Positions 542 to 63,937 of a stretch of DNA of 64,000 bases are shown here, one piece after another (position 1 is the stretch's first letter; every line of letters starts with the position of its first letter). The translations under genes and the position numbers were made by a program. Under the pieces are notes generated by a model that made no database searches, was not told where the DNA came from, and was given only the letters and a program-made list of their open reading frames with translations. This DNA comes from an uncultured bacterium (lineage in GTDB: Bacteria; Patescibacteriota; JACMRA01): the NCBI GenBank assembly GCA_963704645.1, contig OY969926.1, positions 864,001 to 928,000 of the forward strand, in the 5' to 3' direction.

Positions 542-1680
542 TGTACCCGTTCACTACATATGATACTTAGGATGGTATTGTTGTAGGTATTTCATTGGTG
601 GTATAAATTGTCCAATATCTCTTTTTAAACCCAGATGTGGTCTTTGGTTATTGTAGAAGTCTAGGTACATGATTAATTTTAGATTAAAAGCTTGTATATC
701 ATCTCTTAGTATCCATAGATTATAATTAGCAAACTCTTCTTCCACACTTCTATTGAATCTTTCTATGTAAGCATTCATTTTAGGAGATTTAGGATAGTTC
801 CAGAAATGAGTAATATCTTTAAATTTTAACAGTTCATCAAAGTTCTTATGATTTTCTTGTCCATTGTCTGTCTGAACTCTTTTAATCTGGTAAGGGAATA
901 CATCTTGCATTCTTAAGAAGAAGTCTTTTGTACTATTACTACTTAATGTTTTGTAAGCATATACGAAAGAATATCTACTAACTAGATCTACAGCACAGAT
1001 TAAATATCTTTTTACTCCATTAAGATAAAAGGTTATTGCGTCTAATTGAATTAGATCTCCTGGGCTATTAGGCTGGTATTCTTTTCTTCTGGTTTTAACT
1101 TGCTTCCTAGGTTTTAGTAGTCTTTGTTTAATACTTCCTGTTCTACCGTCTAAATAGACTTGCTTTGAGTATTTGTAGACTGGTATTATTCTTTGATCTT
1201 TAAAAGTAGATATTATTCTGCCGATAGTTGAAATTGAAATAGTTTTTAGTGTTTTACTTGTTTCTTTTAGATTTTGTTCTGCACAGTAATCATCTAACAA
1301 TACTTTAAGTTTGTCTTTACCTAGATTAGGATATTGCAATCTAGTTTGTTGAATAAACTCAAGTATTCTCCCTTGTACATTTGACTGTCTAAATTTATTA
1401 GGTCTTTTGCTTTTATCCTTTAAATCGTATTTGTTACCAGCTCCATAATTAAGTTCACAACTTTTTCTCCATTTCTTCCTCCACCTAATTAAAGTTATTC
1501 TGGAAAGTTTACGATTTGAATCTAGAGATAATGCTTCTAATGTAGAATTAATACCATGCTTAAATGAGTATTCAATTATTTTAAATTTATCTTCCAAAGT
1601 GTAAGACATGATCATATGATAGTAGATTTAGGATTATTAATCTACCACCCTTTGGTATCATATGTGTTTGGACTTGTTCA
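542..1680 (-). mobile_element. Insertion sequence, IS481/IS3-like (rve integrase core), ~1.14 kb
   Basis: Imperfect ~25-bp terminal inverted repeats (TGTACCCGTTCACTACATATGATAC vs reverse-complemented right end TGAACAAGTCCAAACACATATGATAC). 5-bp direct repeat AACAT at 537-541 and 1681-1685. Single transposase ORF inside. Confidence 0.85.
554..1615 (-). CDS. DDE transposase, integrase core domain (IS481-like)
   Basis: N-terminal HTH region; DDE motifs PGDLIQLD, VQTDNGQE, NAYIERFNRSVEEEF, FYNNQRPHLGL. Confidence 0.92.
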   Translation of the reverse strand: MIMSYTLEDKFKIIEYSFKHGINSTLEALSLDSNRKLSRITLIRWRKKWRKSCELNYGAGNKYDLKDKSKRPNKFRQSNVQGRILEFIQQTRLQYPNLGKDKLKVLLDDYCAEQNLKETSKTLKTISISTIGRIISTFKDQRIIPVYKYSKQVYLDGRTGSIKQRLLKPRKQVKTRRKEYQPNSPGDLIQLDAITFYLNGVKRYLICAVDLVSRYSFVYAYKTLSSNSTKDFFLRMQDVFPYQIKRVQTDNGQENHKNFDELLKFKDITHFWNYPKSPKMNAYIERFNRSVEEEFANYNLWILRDDIQAFNLKLIMYLDFYNNQRPHLGLKRDIGQFIPPMKYLQQYHPKYHM

Positions 1681-13446: not shown

Positions 13447-13470
13447 GTGGCTCGCCAGCTTCGCCGCTAC
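13447..13470 (-). repeat. GTAG-tagged REP-like family B (GTAGCGGCGAAGCTGGCGAGCCAC)
   Basis: Near-identical copies at 16595, 49024, 56971 and 60163. Confidence 0.85.
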
Positions 13471-15879: not shown

Positions 15880-15977
15880 GTGCGATTTATTGTAAGCGTA
15901 GAAATTACCATCCTAATTTTGAATTAAGCAAAAAAATAACTACTTCAGCGGGGTTGCGTAAAGTAGTTAAAATTAGT

Positions 15978-16478
15978 TTAAGCGTTACACCGTTTCATTG
16001 TGTCTTCCATTTCTTGCTCTAATAATTCATAGAGTTCAGAATCATCCCAAGGAACTTCCAAAGCTGCTTGTTGATCACACCAATCGTCGATGTGTGTTCT
16101 GTCACAATAACCTGCAGTTATATCATCAAATTCGAGTATCCACATTAGGTTGAACTTACCTTGGGAATTTGGTGTTCTTACATCAGCAGGGTAATTAATT
16201 ACTAATGGAAAGACATATTGCTCCAAAAAAGGCTTGATCAATATTTTTCTCAAGTCTTGCTCATCTGGAACATTCTCATTCCACTCCCACCAGAACCATT
16301 CATCACAAGCTAGATATACTTCGGTTAGAATCGCTCCATTACTGGCAATTTTTTCTAATTCGTTCCTTAAACATTCTGCTAACCTGTCTTCTGTTGCTAA
16401 AGAAAGACACAATCTAACTTTGTTATTTTCCAAAAAAGTTAGAGCATTTTCTTCAGAAAATTCAGAGTTATAACTCAC
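15978..16478 (-). CDS. ORFan cassette protein (acidic, Trp-rich)
   Basis: TTGACC promoter at 16546-16551, AGGAG SD, GTG start, terminator at 15930-15969; flanks homologous to the cassette at 60247-60784. Confidence 0.7.
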   Translation of the reverse strand: MSYNSEFSEENALTFLENNKVRLCLSLATEDRLAECLRNELEKIASNGAILTEVYLACDEWFWWEWNENVPDEQDLRKILIKPFLEQYVFPLVINYPADVRTPNSQGKFNLMWILEFDDITAGYCDRTHIDDWCDQQAALEVPWDDSELYELLEQEMEDTMKRCNA

Positions 16479-16594
16479 AATTTTCTCCTATTTCTGTTTG
16501 TAAAGATTTACAGAATAATTTGGGTTTAGCATAGAAATTGTTGTGGGTCAATGTTTGTATTTTTTGAATTAGGTTTCTTCTGCTTTTAAAATGT

Positions 16595-16618
16595 GTGACT
16601 GGCAAGCTTCGCCGCTAC
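16595..16618 (-). repeat. REP-like family B copy
   Basis: GTGACTGGCAAGCTTCGCCGCTAC. Confidence 0.8.
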
Positions 16619-19329: not shown

Positions 19330-20475
19330 ATGTCATTTCAACGAGATATGGAAGATTTTCTTCTGTATTGTGAACTAACCAAGCAGTATTCTGAAAACAC
19401 TGTGCGTAATTATAGGGCTACTATGGAGCGCTTTGGAAAGTTTTTGGAGGTTAGGCAAATAGCTAGAACTAACCAAATTGATATTGATATTGTGAACCAA
19501 TACCGTGTTCATTTAAACAAGCAAGAAAGCATTAGGGGAGATAAAATTAGTTTGAAAACTCAGGCTTATCAAATTGTAGTGTTAAGGTCCTTCTTAAAAT
19601 TTTTAATTAAAAATGGGGCTTTGGTTCTTTCTCCAGATAGATTGGAATTGCCTAAAACTAGAATGCGAAAAATTGAATTTTTAAATGAAACTGAGGTTCA
19701 AAAGCTAATTCATGTAATTATTCAAGATTCGGCTAAAGTTGCAGATGTTCAAAAGAAACGTAATCAGGCCATAGTTTTAATTTTGTTTGGTTCAGGTTTG
19801 CGTTTGTCTGAATTGCTAAGTTTGAAAAAAGCCCAAATTCCATTGTGGAAAGGAGAGGTTGAATTGGAGGAAGAAAATGCTAGTGTTGATAGTAACCCTC
19901 AAGAAAATGGAAGGAGCGTAGAAATTGTGAATGGTGATTTAAATCAAACTCTAAGTTTAGAGTCTGGACTTCCACAAAGTTCAACACTAGAAAAAGATAT
20001 TCCTATACAAAATACACCTAGAAATGAAACTACAAGCCCAGAAATGAGCGACAATCAGCTATTAATTCAAGGTAAAGGTGGAAAAGTCCGCTCGGCTTTT
20101 TTGGCTCCGGCTTCATTAGAAGCAATTCATGAGTATTTAAAAATTCGTGGGGAAGACGAAAACCCTTGGCTGTTCATTTCTTTTAGTAAAAACAGAACTA
20201 AAGATTTAAAAAAACAAAAACCATTAACTCCAAGAATGGTTCAGTTAATGTTACAAAGTTATGCCAACAGATTGGGTATTTATAAGCACGTTACGCCACA
20301 CACACTTCGTCATAGTTTTGCCACAAAGGTTTTAACTGAAGGAGGAGATTTGCGTTCGGTGCAGACTTTGCTTGGCCATTCTAATATTTCTACCACTCAA
20401 ATTTATACACATGTTAGTGACTGGCAAATTAGAGATTTACATTCCAAAGTGTTTGGCAAGAAAGAGGGGAAATAA
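19330..20475 (+). CDS. XerC/XerD-type tyrosine recombinase with a large acidic insertion
   Basis: SAM-like N-domain (YSENTVRNY); catalytic residues in GLRLSE, GKGGK, HTLRH, LGH and TQIY all intact. Confidence 0.93.
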   Translation: MSFQRDMEDFLLYCELTKQYSENTVRNYRATMERFGKFLEVRQIARTNQIDIDIVNQYRVHLNKQESIRGDKISLKTQAYQIVVLRSFLKFLIKNGALVLSPDRLELPKTRMRKIEFLNETEVQKLIHVIIQDSAKVADVQKKRNQAIVLILFGSGLRLSELLSLKKAQIPLWKGEVELEEENASVDSNPQENGRSVEIVNGDLNQTLSLESGLPQSSTLEKDIPIQNTPRNETTSPEMSDNQLLIQGKGGKVRSAFLAPASLEAIHEYLKIRGEDENPWLFISFSKNRTKDLKKQKPLTPRMVQLMLQSYANRLGIYKHVTPHTLRHSFATKVLTEGGDLRSVQTLLGHSNISTTQIYTHVSDWQIRDLHSKVFGKKEGK

Positions 20476-36119: not shown

Positions 36120-37278
36120 ATGCACCTGCAATATATTTATTATAAAAATTATCATCAGTACGAACCCCCTCAATATCGTTTAGTTTAAAAACTTCTGTTG
36201 ATCCATTAATAATGTTTTTCTCAGCAAAAAATATTTGATTTTTATCTAACTTCTTCATGATTGCTAATGAATGTGAACTAAAAATTAATTGACTTTCTAC
36301 TTCAGAATCAATAAACATATCTATAATTTCTCTTAGAATATCAGGATGTAAAAAAGCCTCTAATTCGTCCATAATTAACGGTGATTTGCTTTTTATTGAA
36401 GCCAATATATACCTCATGACTAAAAGAAGTCTTTTTGTTCCGTTGGAAGAGTAGTTAATATCATTACTGTATATTTTGTCACCAAAATTATGATTTTCAA
36501 CAACATCCTGTATAGTAACACTGTTATCCTGTTCTTCAGTTTTAAATTTAATACTATCAAATCCTAAATCAAACCTTCTCAGCATTTTCTCAACATTTAC
36601 TTTCTCATCAGGAAAAATATGAAAAGAAGCTAAGCTTTCCATAATTTCTAAAGGATTATTACCGCCATAGCCTGTTTCTTGGATATTGGTATTTAAATTA
36701 TTCCAATAATTAAAGATCTCAATTGATTTAGAGTCATTAAACTGCCTACCAATAGCAAGCAAAGAGACGTTTGTTCGATCTAATACTTCAGGCTTGTACG
36801 AAGTAAAACTAAGGTTTGAATCTTTATAAATATATTTTCCTTTATTATAATCCAAGTTCCTACTAAAAATAATTTTTGTTGTCCTTCTTTCATTTACTAG
36901 ACTTTTAGATAATAATTCTTCGCTTATAATTTTTTTCCGTGTAAGCTCAACTTTGTAAGTATACAGCGTTTCCTTAATTGCAAAAGCTACTTCAAAAATT
37001 GTATTTTCATTATTTTCAAAAAAATTTTTAAACGGTAGTAAAGCATCAGGTTCAATATCAAAAGATTTACATATTAGCCATTTAATAAATGCAAAAGACT
37101 TGAGGAAGTTAGTCTTCCCAGATGCATTTGAACCCACAAACATATTTACTTTGGAAATTTTCTCCTGTGCAGACTCAAGATAACTGTTGTTGTAAGGCTC
37201 AGAACGGTCAGATATAAAGCTAACTGCCTGCTCATCTCTTATTGAATAAAAATTTTTAACTTTTAAATAATGAATCAT
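36097..37278 (-). CDS. AAA_21/AbiEii-like ABC ATPase (RloA/AbiLi-type)
   Basis: VKNFYSI, GSNASGKTN, SNGTKR, MDELEAFLHP, QLIFSSH and YIAGAYGAKP motifs. Confidence 0.9.
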   Translation of the reverse strand: MIHYLKVKNFYSIRDEQAVSFISDRSEPYNNSYLESAQEKISKVNMFVGSNASGKTNFLKSFAFIKWLICKSFDIEPDALLPFKNFFENNENTIFEVAFAIKETLYTYKVELTRKKIISEELLSKSLVNERRTTKIIFSRNLDYNKGKYIYKDSNLSFTSYKPEVLDRTNVSLLAIGRQFNDSKSIEIFNYWNNLNTNIQETGYGGNNPLEIMESLASFHIFPDEKVNVEKMLRRFDLGFDSIKFKTEEQDNSVTIQDVVENHNFGDKIYSNDINYSSNGTKRLLLVMRYILASIKSKSPLIMDELEAFLHPDILREIIDMFIDSEVESQLIFSSHSLAIMKKLDKNQIFFAEKNIINGSTEVFKLNDIEGVRTDDNFYNKYIAGAYGAKPRI

Positions 37279-37414
37279 AAATTAATAATAACATTTTTTT
37301 AAAATAAGGTCAATATTTTACAAATGATTGGTTTATTTTACTTTTAAATCTAAAAGAATTATGATTTAAGTTTAATCAACCCTCTTGCATTGCACTTCAT
37401 TTAATGATCATATT

Positions 37415-38095
37415 TTATGACATCATCCCTACATTTTTCATACTAGTATAACCATTTATAGAAACCACAATATGATCTGCAACTGTAATTCCTAAAATCC
37501 TCCCAGCTTCAACAAGCCTTCTTGTGGTTAAAATATCATCATTTGAAGGTGTATGATCCCCTGATGGGTGGTTGTGTGCAACTATTATATGCGAAGAATT
37601 ATACAGAATTGCCTTTTGGAAAACCTCTCTGGGGTGAACTAAACTGGCATTTAGTGTACCAACTGATATTTCATCAACAATAAGTTTATTTTTGGTGTCC
37701 AAATACAGAATTACAAAATTTTCTTTTTTTGAGTTACCAATCTTTGCTTTTAAATAGGCATATACTGCTTCTGGTGAATCTAATAGTGTACTATCTTTGA
37801 TTGCTTCTTTGTTGTATCTAATTAATAATTCATGAAAAAGAATAATAGCAAAAGCATTTGAAGGGCCTATTCCATCCACTTGTTGTAGCTCTTCATTTGA
37901 GGCGCTCAAAACATTTGTTAAGCCTTCAAACTTTGAAATTGCAGCTTTTGCAATTTGTTTGCAATCTTTTCTTGGTGTACCTAAAATTAAAAGTAGTTCA
38001 ACAATTTCATAATCTAAAAAACCTTCTAATCCAGATTGTAAAAGTCTGTCTTTAAGTCTTTGTCTATGTCCTATATTTTTGTTTAATTCATCCAT
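37415..38095 (-). CDS. radC: RadC family protein (HhH + JAB domain)
   Basis: GHRQRLK, GIGPS, VHPREVF, HNHPSG and DHI motifs. Confidence 0.95.
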   Translation of the reverse strand: MDELNKNIGHRQRLKDRLLQSGLEGFLDYEIVELLLILGTPRKDCKQIAKAAISKFEGLTNVLSASNEELQQVDGIGPSNAFAIILFHELLIRYNKEAIKDSTLLDSPEAVYAYLKAKIGNSKKENFVILYLDTKNKLIVDEISVGTLNASLVHPREVFQKAILYNSSHIIVAHNHPSGDHTPSNDDILTTRRLVEAGRILGITVADHIVVSINGYTSMKNVGMMS

Positions 38096-38096
38096 A

Positions 38097-40007
38097 TTAG
38101 TTAATTATGGAAATACCATCTGGTATATCTGAATAATTGCTAACAACTTTTGAGTTATTTTTCAAGTTATTTTTGAAATACTCCCTTGTTTCCTCATCAG
38201 TACAATAAATATAGCAACCCTTCATTCCTCTTGTCATTAAAGTTCTATAGGTATTTTTAATAATCATATCTGCCGTTTCTTTGGCTATTTCTGGGTTTTC
38301 TTTAAGCATCTTTTTATAACCAAAAATAGATTTATCCGTGCTTGCTCGTTTTGAAGCATCAGTAAGTATTTTACCATTTCTAACCATTAAATCTGGCCCA
38401 ATGATAACACCTGCATAATCTAGCTCTAAACCTTGGCAAGTGTGAATGCAACCAACTTCATTAACTGAATTTTTATGTACAATCCAAGCTTGTCCGTGCT
38501 CATTTAAATTCCATTTTGCAGAATAATCATCTATAATAATATCTTTTAATTCTGGTTGGGTTTTGCTAACCCATTTCCAACAATAGCCAGCCAAAATTCT
38601 AGATTTATTATTAAATTCATTTTTTTGAATAATTTTTTCATGAACTGATGAAGGGTTATCAATTACTTGGAAATCATAGTTTACTTCTTCAAGTGTATTA
38701 TTTGCTGTTGGCCTTATTTGTAAAACGTTATCAATCCAAGCTAAATAACCATCTGAACCATTACACCTAAACTGTGAAGCTAACTCAAGGGTATGTACTT
38801 TTGCACCTAAAATTTTTGCCCAACTTACAATTTCAGACTTTTGACCAATATCATTTAGCGTAACCCTTTGATCTTCATCTACGAAGAAAATGCTTAATTT
38901 AGCCGATTTAATAAGCTCCTTCACTTGATTCTCTCCAAGATGATTAAAAAGGCCAGATTTGGCATTTAGCCTGTGTGCTTCATCAACAATTAATGAATCA
39001 AAAGTATTTGGCTCTAAACTATGAAATGATCCAGAAGAACTAAATAAATTCTGAATTCTTGTTTTGGTAAATTTACCAGTTAATTTTACTTGATAAACCT
39101 CCCTAGGTGCTGAATTTTTTGTAACATACTGAGTCGCATCTCCTCTTTTTGTTAATTCTGTAAGTAAATTTATTGCTACAACAGATTTACCTGTTCCGGG
39201 CCCACCTTCAACAATTAAAACATTTTTATTATCTTCAGTTGATTCTTTTGCTAGTTTTAAAGCAGTTTCATAAACCAGTTTTTGCTCATCAATAAGAGTA
39301 AATTCAGCATTGCCATCTAACATTGAAGCAAGGTTGTCTGCCAAGGCTTTAGATGGTCGAATTTTGCCATGTTCTATTAAATAAATTGCATCGCCATTAT
39401 CTCCTTTTTTTACAAACTTCTTTATAAAATCTCTAAGCTTGATTGCGTCAGGCTTTAAAAAAATTGGGGCTCTATCCAGGTACTCTTTATAAAACTTGTT
39501 TGTTATTACTTCATCTGGTTCATAATTATGTAAATATGCACAAGGTGAAAGTAAAATTTCTTCTGTTTGTACATTACTATTATAATCTTCAATAAGACTT
39601 GCGTAAGACCAAACCTGATAAGATGGGTGGCAAACTTCACGAACATTTCCACCAACAAAGGTTTTAACCATGCCGTCTAAATCTGTTATATCCGCTGTCT
39701 CCCACTGTTTTAATTCTACTAATACAACTGACTTTTGCTTATTCTCATTTGTACCTGTTATTATAAAGTCTATCCTTTTGGAGTTTTGAGGAACCTTATA
39801 TTCAATTGCAATCCCTGCATTATCAGGAATTTGAGAATCGGAAATAATCTTGTCCATGTACATCATTGAGTTTTTCCACGAAGCAATCTCTGCCCTTCCA
39901 GTTGCATAACCCATTTCACGAACAAAAGAAGTTAAAATTTCCGTCTCAATTCTATTATTCAGCACATCTTCCATGAATAACTTTTTTGTAGATGAATAAA
40001 TAATCAT
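38097..40007 (-). CDS. DUF2075 (Schlafen group 3-like) helicase with N-terminal PD-(D/E)xK-like domain
   Basis: IEY..RIDF..VELKQW, GGPGTGKS, DEAHR, QFRC, QGLELDY and LMTRG motifs. Confidence 0.9.
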   Translation of the reverse strand: MIIYSSTKKLFMEDVLNNRIETEILTSFVREMGYATGRAEIASWKNSMMYMDKIISDSQIPDNAGIAIEYKVPQNSKRIDFIITGTNENKQKSVVLVELKQWETADITDLDGMVKTFVGGNVREVCHPSYQVWSYASLIEDYNSNVQTEEILLSPCAYLHNYEPDEVITNKFYKEYLDRAPIFLKPDAIKLRDFIKKFVKKGDNGDAIYLIEHGKIRPSKALADNLASMLDGNAEFTLIDEQKLVYETALKLAKESTEDNKNVLIVEGGPGTGKSVVAINLLTELTKRGDATQYVTKNSAPREVYQVKLTGKFTKTRIQNLFSSSGSFHSLEPNTFDSLIVDEAHRLNAKSGLFNHLGENQVKELIKSAKLSIFFVDEDQRVTLNDIGQKSEIVSWAKILGAKVHTLELASQFRCNGSDGYLAWIDNVLQIRPTANNTLEEVNYDFQVIDNPSSVHEKIIQKNEFNNKSRILAGYCWKWVSKTQPELKDIIIDDYSAKWNLNEHGQAWIVHKNSVNEVGCIHTCQGLELDYAGVIIGPDLMVRNGKILTDASKRASTDKSIFGYKKMLKENPEIAKETADMIIKNTYRTLMTRGMKGCYIYCTDEETREYFKNNLKNNSKVVSNYSDIPDGISIIN

Positions 40008-49023: not shown

Positions 49024-49047
49024 ATGGCTCGCAAGCTTCGCTGCTAC
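49024..49047 (-). repeat. REP-like family B copy
   Basis: ATGGCTCGCAAGCTTCGCTGCTAC. Confidence 0.8.
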
Positions 49048-56970: not shown

Positions 56971-56994
56971 GTAGCGGCGAAGTTTACGAGCCAC
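56971..56994 (+). repeat. REP-like family B copy
   Basis: GTAGCGGCGAAGTTTACGAGCCAC. Confidence 0.8.
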
Positions 56995-60162: not shown

Positions 60163-60186
60163 GTAGAGGCGAAGCTTGCGAGCAAA
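60163..60186 (+). repeat. REP-like family B copy
   Basis: GTAGAGGCGAAGCTTGCGAGC. Confidence 0.75.
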
Positions 60187-60320
60187 AGTCTTTGAAATTC
60201 AATTAGTGCAAACATCAGGCAGGCATTTTTTCCGCAAATTGAATTGTTGACCCAACCAAAATTTTGTGCTATAAATAAAGAATTCTGTACCTTTATACAA
60301 ACAGAATTTTGGAGGAAATT

Positions 60321-60731
60321 TTGAGTACTTTAGTCTTTAACCCGCAAAAAAATGATGAGCTGGAGAATGTTGAAGAAGATGAAATGGGCATCTCGATAAA
60401 AATAAGCAAATTCGCTATTCAGGATTTCACAGACTCAAAAGTTGCTAAATATATAACTCCTGATGACGAAACTATTTCTGATTTAATTTACCAAAATCTT
60501 ACTGAAGATGAGGTAAAATTTGTTGTTGTTCCATTTGCCACTGAACCTTGTGAAATAATAGCAATTATGGAGGCTTGGCCCAGCATCAGAATTCTAAGTT
60601 TCTCACATCCATCTACTGTTAGATATGAAAATTTGCTCTACGAAGTAAGAGGTGAAGGGTACTCATTTCTTCAAGAATGGCTACCAAACACAATTACTGG
60701 CGGAGTTAAACTTTCTAGTTTCATCCCTTAA
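60321..60731 (+). CDS. ORFan cassette protein (acidic)
   Basis: TTGACC promoter at 60247, GGAGG SD before TTG 60321, terminator at 60741-60784. Confidence 0.7.
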   Translation: MSTLVFNPQKNDELENVEEDEMGISIKISKFAIQDFTDSKVAKYITPDDETISDLIYQNLTEDEVKFVVVPFATEPCEIIAIMEAWPSIRILSFSHPSTVRYENLLYEVRGEGYSFLQEWLPNTITGGVKLSSFIP

Positions 60732-60902
60732 AAAAATAGTAATAACTACTCAAAGCAAATCTCGCTGGGGTAATTATTTTTTTTGGGGAATTAAGACTTA
60801 TTAAACTTCCCAACCCGCCAGCTCCTAAGCTGGTTTTTAATAACATAAATAAATGGTTTATTTAGTATTAAGACATGTTTGGAGTAATCCACTAGCAGCC
60901 GC

Positions 60903-62717
60903 CTAACTAGGCGGTATGTTTTTTTCCTTATTATTTAAAACTACCTGACACAATAACAAAATTATATGAAATAGCATATTTGATGCCTTATAATTAAAAA
61001 ATTGTTCTTTATTTATCCCATGTGCAAAATCATTTCTTAAATTAAAGCCAAAATTTTCAGTTAAAACTAACTTAAAGTAAAATGATGCTTCATTATCTAC
61101 AATTGCAAAAACGTAATCTATAATCTTATCGTATTCCTCTAGCAAGACACTCAAAGATTTAACTTGATACCCTCCATTTTTAGAAATAAAAGATAAATAG
61201 TGACCGCCATTTAATTTCACAAGTTTTCGAATTCCAGTTTCAATGATTGGTATAAAGAGATGAGAAGAAACTATAAAATCATTTTCCCAAAAAGCCCTTA
61301 TAGCTCTATTTAAATACTCAATATTTTCTTTTTCAAAAAGTACTGTAGATCTAATTATATTAACCAGCTCTTGCGCTGTAAAATGTTTTTTGAATCTAAT
61401 AATTGCCATTTCTAAGAAAAATGATCTGACACTCAAATCTTGAGACGAATTTTTAACAAAATGATGTTTTTTTGACTTTTCATTATCTATGCCTAGTATA
61501 GTACCACTTATAAATCCCTCATCTGAAATTATTTGAGTTGGAAACATAAACAACAGGGAGTGTTTTGCAACGATATCATTAAATTGTTTTTCTAATTCCT
61601 CTTTTTTTGGCATAAAATTAATGGCCAACTTCATAATCACCAGTTTTAACTTTTCTTCTTCAGCAACACCCTCCGTATTAAAAAGTGAATTTAAAAAATT
61701 CTCTATATCTTTAGTTGGGATTTCTAATTTTGTTTCAATTTTCTGCATGCTGTTACTCCAATCTAAATCTAAATTATTAATTTCTTTTGTTATCCTATCT
61801 ACATCATGCTTGAACACACTAAAACCTTTGTCTTGATATAATTTATAAATTTCCCTTATCTTATCATAAGAATTGTTTTGTAATATTGGTTCAGAACTTA
61901 ATCTTTTATCTAGTTTATATGAATCCTCCAAAGTTTTTAGAACCCTTGTTAAATTTATCTCATCTTTAATACTTGCATAAAACTCCGCAAGTAAACCTAC
62001 AGCATGTTGAGTTAGATGTGGATCCACACTTATTCTTTGAAGTCTTAACTCTAAATTTTCAATTATTTTGATTTTAATTGCCTTATCTAAAACTAAAGTA
62101 TTGTTTTTTTCCAAAATCAGCCAATCGAAAGCAAAACCCCATAATCCTGGCAAGCCATCTTCTCCTATTTTTTCTTCTAGGACAATAATCTTATTAATTA
62201 TATTGGTTAGATCTATTTTTTTGTTATCTTTAAAACTTAATGCTAAATCTAAGCACCTTTTTATTTTTGTTTTACAATGGATCTGATCTAATAATAACTT
62301 ATCGCATATTTCTAAATTTGAGTTTATTACTGTTAAAATTAGATCAATAATGTTTTCTGGATTTCTTCCTGTTATTTTTTTATAAAAATCTATTACCAAA
62401 TCAGCATATCGTGCAGATAGAACTGGATTCTTCACTTCTTGTGATCTTTGTCTCCAGTAATTAAGTGTTTCTAATGTTATTTTTTGAATACTTGGGTATT
62501 GCCCATAATAACAGCCCCAGCCCGTTTCTTTATTACTATAATTTTCTATAAATTCAAATGCTATCTGCTCATACATCTCTTCCGAAGTCGGTTCGTAATC
62601 ATTTAAGTTTTTTAGTATTCTATTAATATTACTTGATATTTGATACTCCGCTAGAAATTCATTATTACTTTGAGAGCCTAAATCATTAAGAAATTCAGAC
62701 AAATTTTCATGAATCAT
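60903..62717 (-). CDS. DUF4209-like protein with C-terminal HEPN-type RxxxxH motif
   Basis: ARYAD, GLWG, IETGIRKL and GFNLRNDFAHG motifs. Confidence 0.75.
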   Translation of the reverse strand: MIHENLSEFLNDLGSQSNNEFLAEYQISSNINRILKNLNDYEPTSEEMYEQIAFEFIENYSNKETGWGCYYGQYPSIQKITLETLNYWRQRSQEVKNPVLSARYADLVIDFYKKITGRNPENIIDLILTVINSNLEICDKLLLDQIHCKTKIKRCLDLALSFKDNKKIDLTNIINKIIVLEEKIGEDGLPGLWGFAFDWLILEKNNTLVLDKAIKIKIIENLELRLQRISVDPHLTQHAVGLLAEFYASIKDEINLTRVLKTLEDSYKLDKRLSSEPILQNNSYDKIREIYKLYQDKGFSVFKHDVDRITKEINNLDLDWSNSMQKIETKLEIPTKDIENFLNSLFNTEGVAEEEKLKLVIMKLAINFMPKKEELEKQFNDIVAKHSLLFMFPTQIISDEGFISGTILGIDNEKSKKHHFVKNSSQDLSVRSFFLEMAIIRFKKHFTAQELVNIIRSTVLFEKENIEYLNRAIRAFWENDFIVSSHLFIPIIETGIRKLVKLNGGHYLSFISKNGGYQVKSLSVLLEEYDKIIDYVFAIVDNEASFYFKLVLTENFGFNLRNDFAHGINKEQFFNYKASNMLFHIILLLCQVVLNNKEKNIPPS

Positions 62718-62722
62718 AATAT

Positions 62723-62998
62723 CTATTTGTTTTCCCTTACGTTATCCTCAAAATTCCATTTTATAATAAAATTTGAAGTTGCACCATTGTTCATATTTAC
62801 TTCAAAAACAGCTAATTTATCATCAGAATCAATAAAATTTTCTAAATGATTAGCTACTTCAAACGGAGTTAAATTCGTATTTATAAGCCAGCTCGAACTT
62901 AGAAGTTTTGTAGGTGTAAGTTTCTCTATTTCTTGAATTAATCTTGTATAATCTTTGGTTTTAATTAGGTCGTATTCGACCATTAATGTTTTGTTCAT
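62723..62998 (-). CDS. Small Cas2/VapD-like ferredoxin-fold protein
   Basis: LMVEYDL...DY..L, SSWLI and IDSDDKL.V motifs. Confidence 0.65.
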   Translation of the reverse strand: MNKTLMVEYDLIKTKDYTRLIQEIEKLTPTKLLSSSWLINTNLTPFEVANHLENFIDSDDKLAVFEVNMNNGATSNFIIKWNFEDNVRENK

Positions 62999-63124: not shown

Positions 63125-63763
63125 CTATTTAAGGATAAAATCGTCACTTATATCTTCTTGGGTTAACGCACTTAATTTAATCAGACCTTTTTCAAAACTA
63201 AGTAAATCTTTAAGTTGTGAATTTGAATATTTTACTTTATCATTAAGAACAGAATCTATAATCTCCATGTCTGATCTAGAAACATCAGCAAAATATAACT
63301 CATCAGTTGAAATTGGTGCTAGACCAAAAGACTTAAATTTATTAAAAACTTCGATATGAATTGGGCCAAACTCAGAAATCTTAAAGTCGTTACTAAACAA
63401 TTGTTTTTTATTTTTAAGACCTTCTTTGTATACAAAATATAAAATACGGTTTAGTTTTAAGTTACTAATATCAAACTCATTATTCAAAATTTGCTTGCTT
63501 TTATCTAGAATATAGTTTGCTACTTGAAAAGTTTTATCAGATTTTTGATCAACTAGTTTAATTGTAATGTTTAGTGTCTTAAATAATCTTTCCATTGTAC
63601 TAGCCGAAGGTGACATCTCGCCCTTTTCAAGCCTTGCAACAGTTGACTGTGGTACATTCATTTTGGCCGCCAGTTCATACTGAGACATTCCTAAAGATTC
63701 TCTTTTTTGCTTTACTGTATCTGAAATTAGTTTAACCAATGCCGTTGTGTTTGTGTTATCCAT
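63125..63763 (-). CDS. XRE HTH fused to a Panacea (DUF4065/SocA) antitoxin domain
   Basis: RESLGMSQYELA..VARLEKG, then VANYIL..ISNLKLNRILYF..LF...FGP; likely start ATG 63763. Confidence 0.8.
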   Translation of the reverse strand: MDNTNTTALVKLISDTVKQKRESLGMSQYELAAKMNVPQSTVARLEKGEMSPSASTMERLFKTLNITIKLVDQKSDKTFQVANYILDKSKQILNNEFDISNLKLNRILYFVYKEGLKNKKQLFSNDFKISEFGPIHIEVFNKFKSFGLAPISTDELYFADVSRSDMEIIDSVLNDKVKYSNSQLKDLLSFEKGLIKLSALTQEDISDDFILK

Positions 63764-63937
63764 ATTTCCTAAAATTAATTTACTTGTTAAACGTTGCACC
63801 AATTTTCTTTAAAGTCAATGAATATACTTAATTAAATAAGAATTAAATATTTTTACGTATTCGTAAATTCTAATGTCCAAACTCCTGACCCACCCACCCT
63901 ATTGACAAAGCAAACCCATAAAAGAAGGCTGAATACA

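Follow-up and report, generated by a model that had tools for sequence, protein, structure and literature searches.

How do two small genes whose products show no resemblance come to lie within the same promoter, leader and terminator? The present analysis takes up this question for two loci, here called cassettes A and B, which are separated by 44 kb in a 64-kb stretch of bacterial DNA (the window; bases 864001-928000 of a genome assembled as one contig, 1,272,640 bases long). The genome has 33% GC and a marker completeness of 87%, and by inference its source is a reduced bacterium resembling those of the candidate phyla radiation (CPR-like); a tRNA-Cys gene was the sole RNA gene called within the window. 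An earlier note on this DNA had proposed that A and B belong to a dispersed family of expression shells with a conserved leader hairpin and exchangeable or very fast-evolving cargo. From sequence comparison, A and B are real, statistically supported homologous copies of a predicted expression shell around two orphan genes without detectable relationship.

Flanks and coding regions of cassettes A and B

The flanks were compared by Smith-Waterman alignment across all genes of a set of 1138 open reading frames (ORFs; crude gene calls), with 90 nucleotides (nt) taken upstream and 65 nt downstream of each. Upstream, A and B scored 36 against each other, first of 1136 in both directions with the next score at 18; downstream they scored 21, again first of 1136 reciprocally, with the next at 15. 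Since the pair had been picked by its upstream similarity, the downstream rank adds independent evidence at 1 in 1136. When the 5′ core of A alone was run with nhmmer against the 1.27-Mb genome, its top non-self match was B (E 0.0067, 17.3 bits) and the next stood at E 22; the top non-self match of the A terminator was the B terminator, weakly (E 1.2). In blastn-short, the A-B pairing was not among the ten best matches listed per query. Downstream scores of 20 and above are common genome-wide between genes with unrelated proteins (267 pairs), the genome being rich in small repeats, so only the joint upstream and downstream signal is strong. Of the roughly 645,000 gene pairs compared, a mere handful with unrelated proteins reach 27 or more upstream and also 20 or more downstream.

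The 5′ alignment, from the -35 hexamer to the second codon, is identical in 59 of 84 columns with one gap of 1 nt. Its identical runs measure 8 (TTGACCCA), 5 (TGCTA), 8 (ATTCTGTA) and 11 nt (TACAAACAGAA), with further runs of 4 (GGAG), 5 (AAATT) and 5 nt (TGAGT), and the spacing of the blocks is equal to within 1 nt across the 84 nt. The terminators are about 80% identical, loop bases included, by our own count from the alignment. Similarity ends no more than about 5 nt past the start codon and restarts about 10-15 nt past the stop codon. The strings that the earlier note had quoted for A and B are indeed present in the window where it placed them; its observations of matching upstream sequence and of terminators that align are borne out by the reciprocal ranks, and the similarity that it had observed proved, once set against the rest of the genome, to exceed chance in its joint signal. 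Read from these alignments, descent of the noncoding flanks of A and B from one ancestral unit is shown.

Between the coding regions no relation was found. BLASTP gave no alignment of A with B, tblastx in every frame and strand gave nothing below E 4.5, blastn-short on the coding DNA gave scattered matches of 6-11 nt only, and hhalign of the A profile with B returned a probability of 0.1%. The single local Smith-Waterman alignment of the two proteins (score 44, reached by 6 of 1000 shuffles) pairs residues 129-162 of A with 32-66 of B; it is acid-rich and not colinear. This agrees with the earlier observation that the two acidic proteins show no similarity, and the best explanation of these comparisons would be that the A and B ORFs are not homologous.

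At both loci frame 0 alone scores as native coding sequence, and the two ORFs, like those of a second pair, C and D, described below, have native GC content and codon usage. A full HMMER scan of 1.84 billion representatives with A as query found a sole relative, the remote homologue P0003 (160 amino acids, aa), with 31% identity over the full length (E 2.6e-15) and conserved Cys and Trp positions; local alignment of P0003 with B gave no score. Given the native composition of the four ORFs and a real homologue of A, these are therefore genuine genes. Other searches returned little: in a set of 5.8 billion clusters A and B each found only themselves, and a profile of A with P0003 only those two; neither protein had a paralogue in its own genome, a homologue in 25 family genomes or among viral contigs and phage records, or a usable match in the ESM Atlas. 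PDB sequences gave none for A and one match at E 0.88 for B, and Pfam, PHROGs, PADLOC and NCBIfam gave only noise, the best being E 0.032 in PHROGs for A and E 0.012 in PADLOC for B.

The features of the two cassettes are collected in Table 1. Their best explanation is that A and B are self-contained one-gene transcription units, each with a predicted sigma-70-type promoter, a leader of about 45 nt, a non-ATG start and a terminator. The terminator hairpins are stable as folded RNA (A, -13.4 kcal/mol, z -3.88; B, -18.5 kcal/mol, z -3.96). A scan for consensus promoters and terminators left both promoters and both AT-rich terminators uncalled; the promoter of A was missed because its -10 hexamer lacks T at position 6. 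The start of ORF B was set by its register with A, the ORF listing starting earlier, at a TTG at 60309 inside the Shine-Dalgarno (SD) sequence.

Table 1. Features of cassettes A and B and copies of the GTAG box in the window (window positions; pI, isoelectric point).
Feature	Position	Strand	Details	Basis or remark
Promoter, A	-35 16546-16551; -10 16523-16528	minus	-35 TTGACC; 17-nt spacer ending TG-C; TG-extended -10 TAAACC	read from sequence, aligned to B
Leader inverted repeat, A	16492-16516	minus	ATTCTGTA-N6-TACAAACAGAA; arms TTCTGT/ACAGAA, inner palindrome TGTAAA-TC-TTTACA	
SD and start, A	GGAG 16485-16488; GTG 16476-16478	minus	AAATT spacer	
ORF A	15978-16478	minus	166 aa, pI 4.1, 7 Trp, 6 Cys	
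Intrinsic terminator, A	15930-15969	minus	hairpin 15937-15969 plus T-tract	fold, alignment to B terminator
Promoter, B	-35 60247-60252; -10 60270-60275	plus	-35 TTGACC; 17-nt spacer; TG-extended -10 TATAAA	
Leader inverted repeat, B	60282-60306	plus	ATTCTGTA-N6-TACAAACAGAA; arms extendable to AATTCTGT/ACAGAATT	
SD and start, B	GGAGG 60311-60315; TTG 60321-60323	plus	AAATT spacer	
ORF B	60321-60731	plus	136 aa, pI 4.3	
Intrinsic terminator, B	60736-60786	plus		fold, profile match
GTAG box upstream of A	16597-16618	minus	GTAGCGGCGAAGCTTGC...	dispersed-repeat copy
GTAG box upstream of B	60163-60184	plus		32 nt past end of MscS-like gene
Further GTAG copy	13449-13470	minus		
Further GTAG copy	49026-49047	minus		
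Further GTAG copy	56971-56992	plus	GTTTAC variant	

Copy number, leader repeat and surroundings

The shell was not found to be repeated beyond A and B. Allowing up to 2 mismatches, the leader motif has 2 copies genome-wide; a two-sequence profile found no third shell member in the genome (next best E 0.32), and the shell was not found in the 25 family genomes. At up to 3 mismatches the leader motif in 26 family genomes was not clearly above a reversed-pattern control. Two public collections gave 15 matches to it among genome contigs and 40 among metagenome contigs, all of them lacking promoter or SD context; these look like chance, and the genome-contig count is about that predicted by chance. 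A sequence-only covariance model of the shell gave matches of 15-19 bits in relatives and at the leader of C, and those in relatives, when inspected, were ordinary regions of promoter and SD, such as one that precedes a membrane-protein gene of the same-genus genome. Since the shell occurs exactly twice in the genome and was not found in 25 family genomes or two public collections, the dispersed family proposed for it is not sustained. A weak match to the shell model in G015:C18 (about 1040-1560, minus strand), from a relative outside the genus, lies directly upstream of an operon resembling umuD-umuC by our own reading of its ORFs; the match contains TGTA-N6-TAGA-CAGAA, and nothing similar is present at the umuD promoter of the genome studied here.

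The earlier note had also described the leader repeat as a hairpin, and as a stable RNA this does not hold up, both folds being weak (A, -3.8 kcal/mol, z +0.64; B, -8.1 kcal/mol, z -0.60). The repeat starts about 6 nt past the -10 hexamer and has TGTA-N6-TACA nested inside TTCTGT-N12-ACAGAA, and its “loop” bases are also conserved between A and B. This position, the nested palindrome and the conserved loop bases are taken to favor a protein site at the DNA level rather than an RNA hairpin, though a pair of sequences yields no covariation. Most likely the repeat would be an operator, acting at the DNA level, for a putative dimeric regulator, or else a 5′-end element, and if it is shared for that reason the A and B genes may be expressed under the same conditions. 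A scan of the window against Rfam at gathering thresholds gave no match at the two loci, and a scan that admitted matches up to E 0.1 likewise gave none for A, B, C, D or the four-gene tandem array described below. A regulon defined by TGTA-N6-TACA was considered and rejected, since that motif is not enriched in intergenic DNA (41 genome sites, 8 of them intergenic, which is chance level). The repeat also resembles the LexA-type box, the consensus of which is CTGT-N8-ACAG. A LexA/SOS box was rejected as well: the genome has no PF01726, and the upstream regions of recA and umuD lack the motif. The S24 matches in the genome are a UmuD-like ORF and an ORF that, by reading of its sequence, resembles a membrane signal peptidase.

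A further upstream similarity, at GGCGAAGCTTGC, turned out to belong to a separate genome-wide repeat. This box (GTAG...GGCGAAGCTTGC) has 27 genome copies at up to 2 mismatches, in both orientations, mostly intergenic and many of them just past gene ends, and it forms the 5′ end of a repeat of 45-50 nt, in which GTAGCGGCGAAGCTTGCGAGCC gives way to a less strict consensus of about 25 nt. Among the blastn-short matches listed, the box copy of A was closer to another copy (94% over 35 nt) than to that of B, and the copy of B was nearest to other copies (94% over 34 nt, 100% over 25 nt). The box is thus probably an independent dispersed repeat and not part of the A/B shell. Of the 25 relatives, two carry the repeat: the same-genus genome, with 3 variant copies, and another, with 2. 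Only ten of the 27 copies lie within 260 nt upstream of a gene in the same orientation; these genes encode 81-1401 aa, and a module of box and promoter was rejected as there is no promoter common to those ten. The repeat is similar to repetitive extragenic palindromic (REP) sequences and bacterial interspersed mosaic elements (BIME) in being a short, GC-rich, intergenic repeat that starts with GTAG, occurs in 27 copies and often lies past gene ends. Unlike REP, it is nearly confined to one genome, its palindrome and fold are weak, and the genome lacks a REP-associated tyrosine transposase (RAYT/Y1; PF01797). Another small hairpin repeat, CCTGAAA-N-AAGTTCAGG, is found at several intergenic sites both here and in the same-genus genome, including positions past GTAG boxes at genome 779637 and 913026 and one upstream of recA.

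Only one same-genus genome was available, with flanking proteins 66-74% identical, and it lacks both ORF A and ORF B. The neighborhood of A is rearranged there. That of B, between DnaG and MscS genes on one side and a PDC-S39/DUF4209 gene on the other, is retained as to DnaG-MscS, with ORF B and the adjoining PDC-S39/DUF4209 gene absent; an unrelated, different gene follows directly after DnaG-MscS, and therefore the PDC-S39 block is not at that site. The adjoining gene in the window (60903-62717, minus) encodes a 604-aa protein of candidate defense family PDC-S39 (E 4.5e-30) with DUF4209, and beyond it are a 91-aa orphan (62723-62998, minus) and a protein with HTH_3 and a SocA/Panacea antitoxin-like region (63125-63802, minus). 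A few kb from locus A is a holin-like protein with four transmembrane segments (PF04020; 10064-10438, minus), and 3 kb from A is a tyrosine recombinase of the Xer/phage-integrase family (19330-20475, plus); beyond these two, no phage genes were seen near locus A. Short direct repeats bracket cassette A at 15895-15926 and 16528-16571 (TAATTCAAAA, 10/10 nt, and AATTTCTAYGCT, 11/12 nt, in minus-strand reading), so that a partial copy of the promoter region lies just past the terminator; by rough estimate these repeats are borderline above chance. From one DNA sequencing run (word share 0.09) came seven short contigs of low depth, identical and without variants or joints.

Explanations for conserved flanks around unlike genes

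The arrangement could have arisen if the ORF of one copy was replaced, or if flanks were copied onto another ORF, perhaps by recombination inside the conserved regulatory blocks, following the logic of the promoter-early stem-loop (PeSL) cassettes considered below. Such replacement or copying is our tentative preference for A and B, with a probability that we would set slightly short of an even chance. It is placed ahead of hidden paralogy because of the precedent of pair C/D in the same genome, the sharp loss of similarity where the ORFs begin and end, and the identity of about 80% between the terminators with their loops included.

Pair C/D, which emerged from comparing the flanks of all genes with one another, lies outside the window, with 37 kb between C (1044970-1045380, minus, 136 aa) and D (1081903-1082307, plus, 134 aa; genome coordinates, as are the stretches examined, 1044880-1045470 and 1081813-1082397). 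The 5′ promoter-leader flanks are 89% identical over 46 nt and the 3′ terminator flanks 98% over 49 nt, and the ORFs show no relation by BLASTP, tblastx or blastn. Neither C nor D had a relative in its own genome or in 26 order genomes, or a Pfam match, and no further occurrence of their flanks was found. Flanks so nearly identical around ORFs that cannot be aligned require ORF replacement or flank copying, and an old duplication cannot explain this pair. In both leaders a TGTGCTA extended -10 is followed by ATTCGGTA-N6-TAC. The pattern ATTCNGTA-N6-TAC has 9 matches in the genome, of which 5 fall within genes and one in each of the A, B, C and D leaders, which is no more than suggestive of a link between the A/B and C/D leaders. 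Adjoining C (1045516-1046579) are two overlapping ORFs of 207 and 149 aa with DUF1016 N-terminal and YhcG PDDEXK nuclease domains, which may be one frameshifted gene.

A related pattern was seen in a tandem array of four genes at genome 809292-811356. The best ORF pair in this array is 35% identical in protein (proportion of synonymous differences, pS, 0.61) and 55% in coding DNA, and the intergenic module of terminator and promoter is 83% identical overall and, by eye, about 90% over its first 125 nt; this conserved spacer of about 125 nt, which has no Rfam match, could hold a small RNA. A second tandem array of small ORFs with better-conserved spacers lies at 36623-38100. Taken together, pair C/D and the arrays indicate that regulatory modules are repeatedly better conserved in this genome than the ORFs they bracket. 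Identical upstream regions were also seen in presumed insertion sequences, namely a 353-aa gene present four times (once in the window, 554-1615, minus) and a 325-aa gene present eight times.

Several observations weigh against replacement or copying. The array shares its intergenic modules, and two of its ORFs are recognizable paralogues while the others are not, so fast divergence of ORFs beside conserved flanks is possible without any swap. The longest identical run between A and B, at 11 nt, is too short for present-day homologous exchange. Outside runs of at least 4 nt, identity in the 5′ alignment falls to 13 of 38 columns (34%, vs 29% expected at random), which fits a very old duplication for which unrecognizable paralogues would be unsurprising. 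A and B are similar in character, both being acidic, cytoplasmic and 136-166 aa long, and the AlphaFold2 models are of low confidence (pLDDT, the predicted local distance difference test, 45 for A from a two-row alignment and 35 for B from a single sequence). Lastly, a pool of alternative cargo, an empty shell and a third copy were all not found in the genome, 25 relatives or two public collections.

An old duplication of the whole cassette, after which A and B, as true paralogues with small proteins under weak constraint or diversifying, diverged past recognition while purifying selection kept promoter, operator, SD and terminator, would be a possible history, one to which we give appreciable weight and yet rather less than an even chance. 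It is the simplest history for units common at both ends. It draws on the near-random identity outside the 5′ blocks, on the likeness of A and B in size, charge and codon usage, and on the tandem array, which could stand as an intermediate between recognizable and unrecognizable paralogues. What speaks against it is that no colinear similarity was detected at the protein, profile or DNA level, the sole local protein alignment being acid-rich and out of register, and that the terminators remain unsaturated even in the loop, which sits poorly with coding DNA too diverged to align if both date from one duplication. Nor could pair C/D be explained in this way.

It is improbable that the flanks have no common descent at all and that unrelated genes independently gained the same regulator site along with generic signals, as members of one regulon. 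The 5′ similarity is confined to recognizable functional blocks, the shell model reaches its 15-19 bits at ordinary promoter and SD regions of relatives and at the C leader, and ATTC[TG]GTA-N6-TAC is present in the C and D leaders too, all as such a regulon might predict. Against this, the terminators are mutual best matches among 1136 and have a common loop sequence, and the block spacing is constant to 1 nt over 84 nt. The motif itself also fails to stand out: in 1137 upstream windows, with 1 mismatch allowed, it had 4 matches (A-D) against a shuffle mean of 1.9 and maximum of 6, and TGTA-N6-TACA is at chance level. Chance resemblance of AT-rich intergenic DNA, toward which the terminator match at E 1.2, the commonness of downstream scores of at least 20 and the absence of A-B from the ten best blastn-short matches listed might lean, is effectively refuted by the gap between the B match and the next in the 5′ nhmmer search and by reciprocal first ranks on both sides, with the flanks correctly ordered and oriented about a single ORF, and its probability is negligible.

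Significance and comparison with known systems

Genomes of this reduced type abound in small orphan genes, and how these arise and turn over lacks an explanation. If flanks are retained or mobile independently of ORFs, this would offer a route by which new small genes arrive ready for expression, and independent flank movement would also explain the lack of relatives in sequence searches. If the proteins are instead hidden paralogues, the case still shows regulatory DNA whose conservation far exceeds that of the coding DNA under its control.

Three known systems bear comparison. Integron cassettes are similar in that small, mostly orphan ORFs are bounded on the 3′ side by a conserved imperfect palindrome. 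They differ in that A and B each have their own promoter and lie 44 kb apart, not in an array; by eye there are no attC core sites in the terminators, and no adjacent integrase was seen, an intI-specific search not being part of the analysis. Phage morons are autonomous units of promoter, ORF and terminator inserted between genes. A and B are like morons in having their own promoter and terminator and in lying between unrelated housekeeping genes, with B absent from the DnaG-MscS site in the same genus; unlike morons, they have no prophage context or phage homologues, and their composition and codon usage are native.

The third system is the PeSL cassette, described from T4-type phages (Arbiol et al. 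2010, PMC2839356). Its conserved blocks of promoter and stem-loop, which end at the SD and start codon of an orphan ORF, are proposed to act as recombination sites that carry expression signals of their own; they occur at about 50 copies per phage genome in hyperplastic regions, and exchange was shown there by comparison of near-identical phages and by detection of mini-circles. Similarly, A and B have a predicted sigma-70-type promoter, a stem-loop or terminator, and an SD with start around unrelated small orphan ORFs. As for the stem-loop, the A/B terminator hairpins are stable (z about -3.9) and the leader stem-loop is not. Further work on PeSL cassettes was reportedly done by Comeau et al. 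in 2014. The A/B shell differs in having 2 copies, 70% identical, in a cellular genome, with no exchange event or circle seen. Given this low copy number and the cellular setting, with no exchange seen, A and B are not members of the PeSL family. A cellular counterpart of PeSL might nonetheless be imagined, in which promoter-leader and terminator modules serve as recombination handles and orphan ORFs are swapped without an integrase, A/B being an old product, C/D a recent one and the tandem arrays the source; we consider this extended scheme unlikely as a whole. In outline, the PeSL cassette is nonetheless the closest known analogue of A and B.

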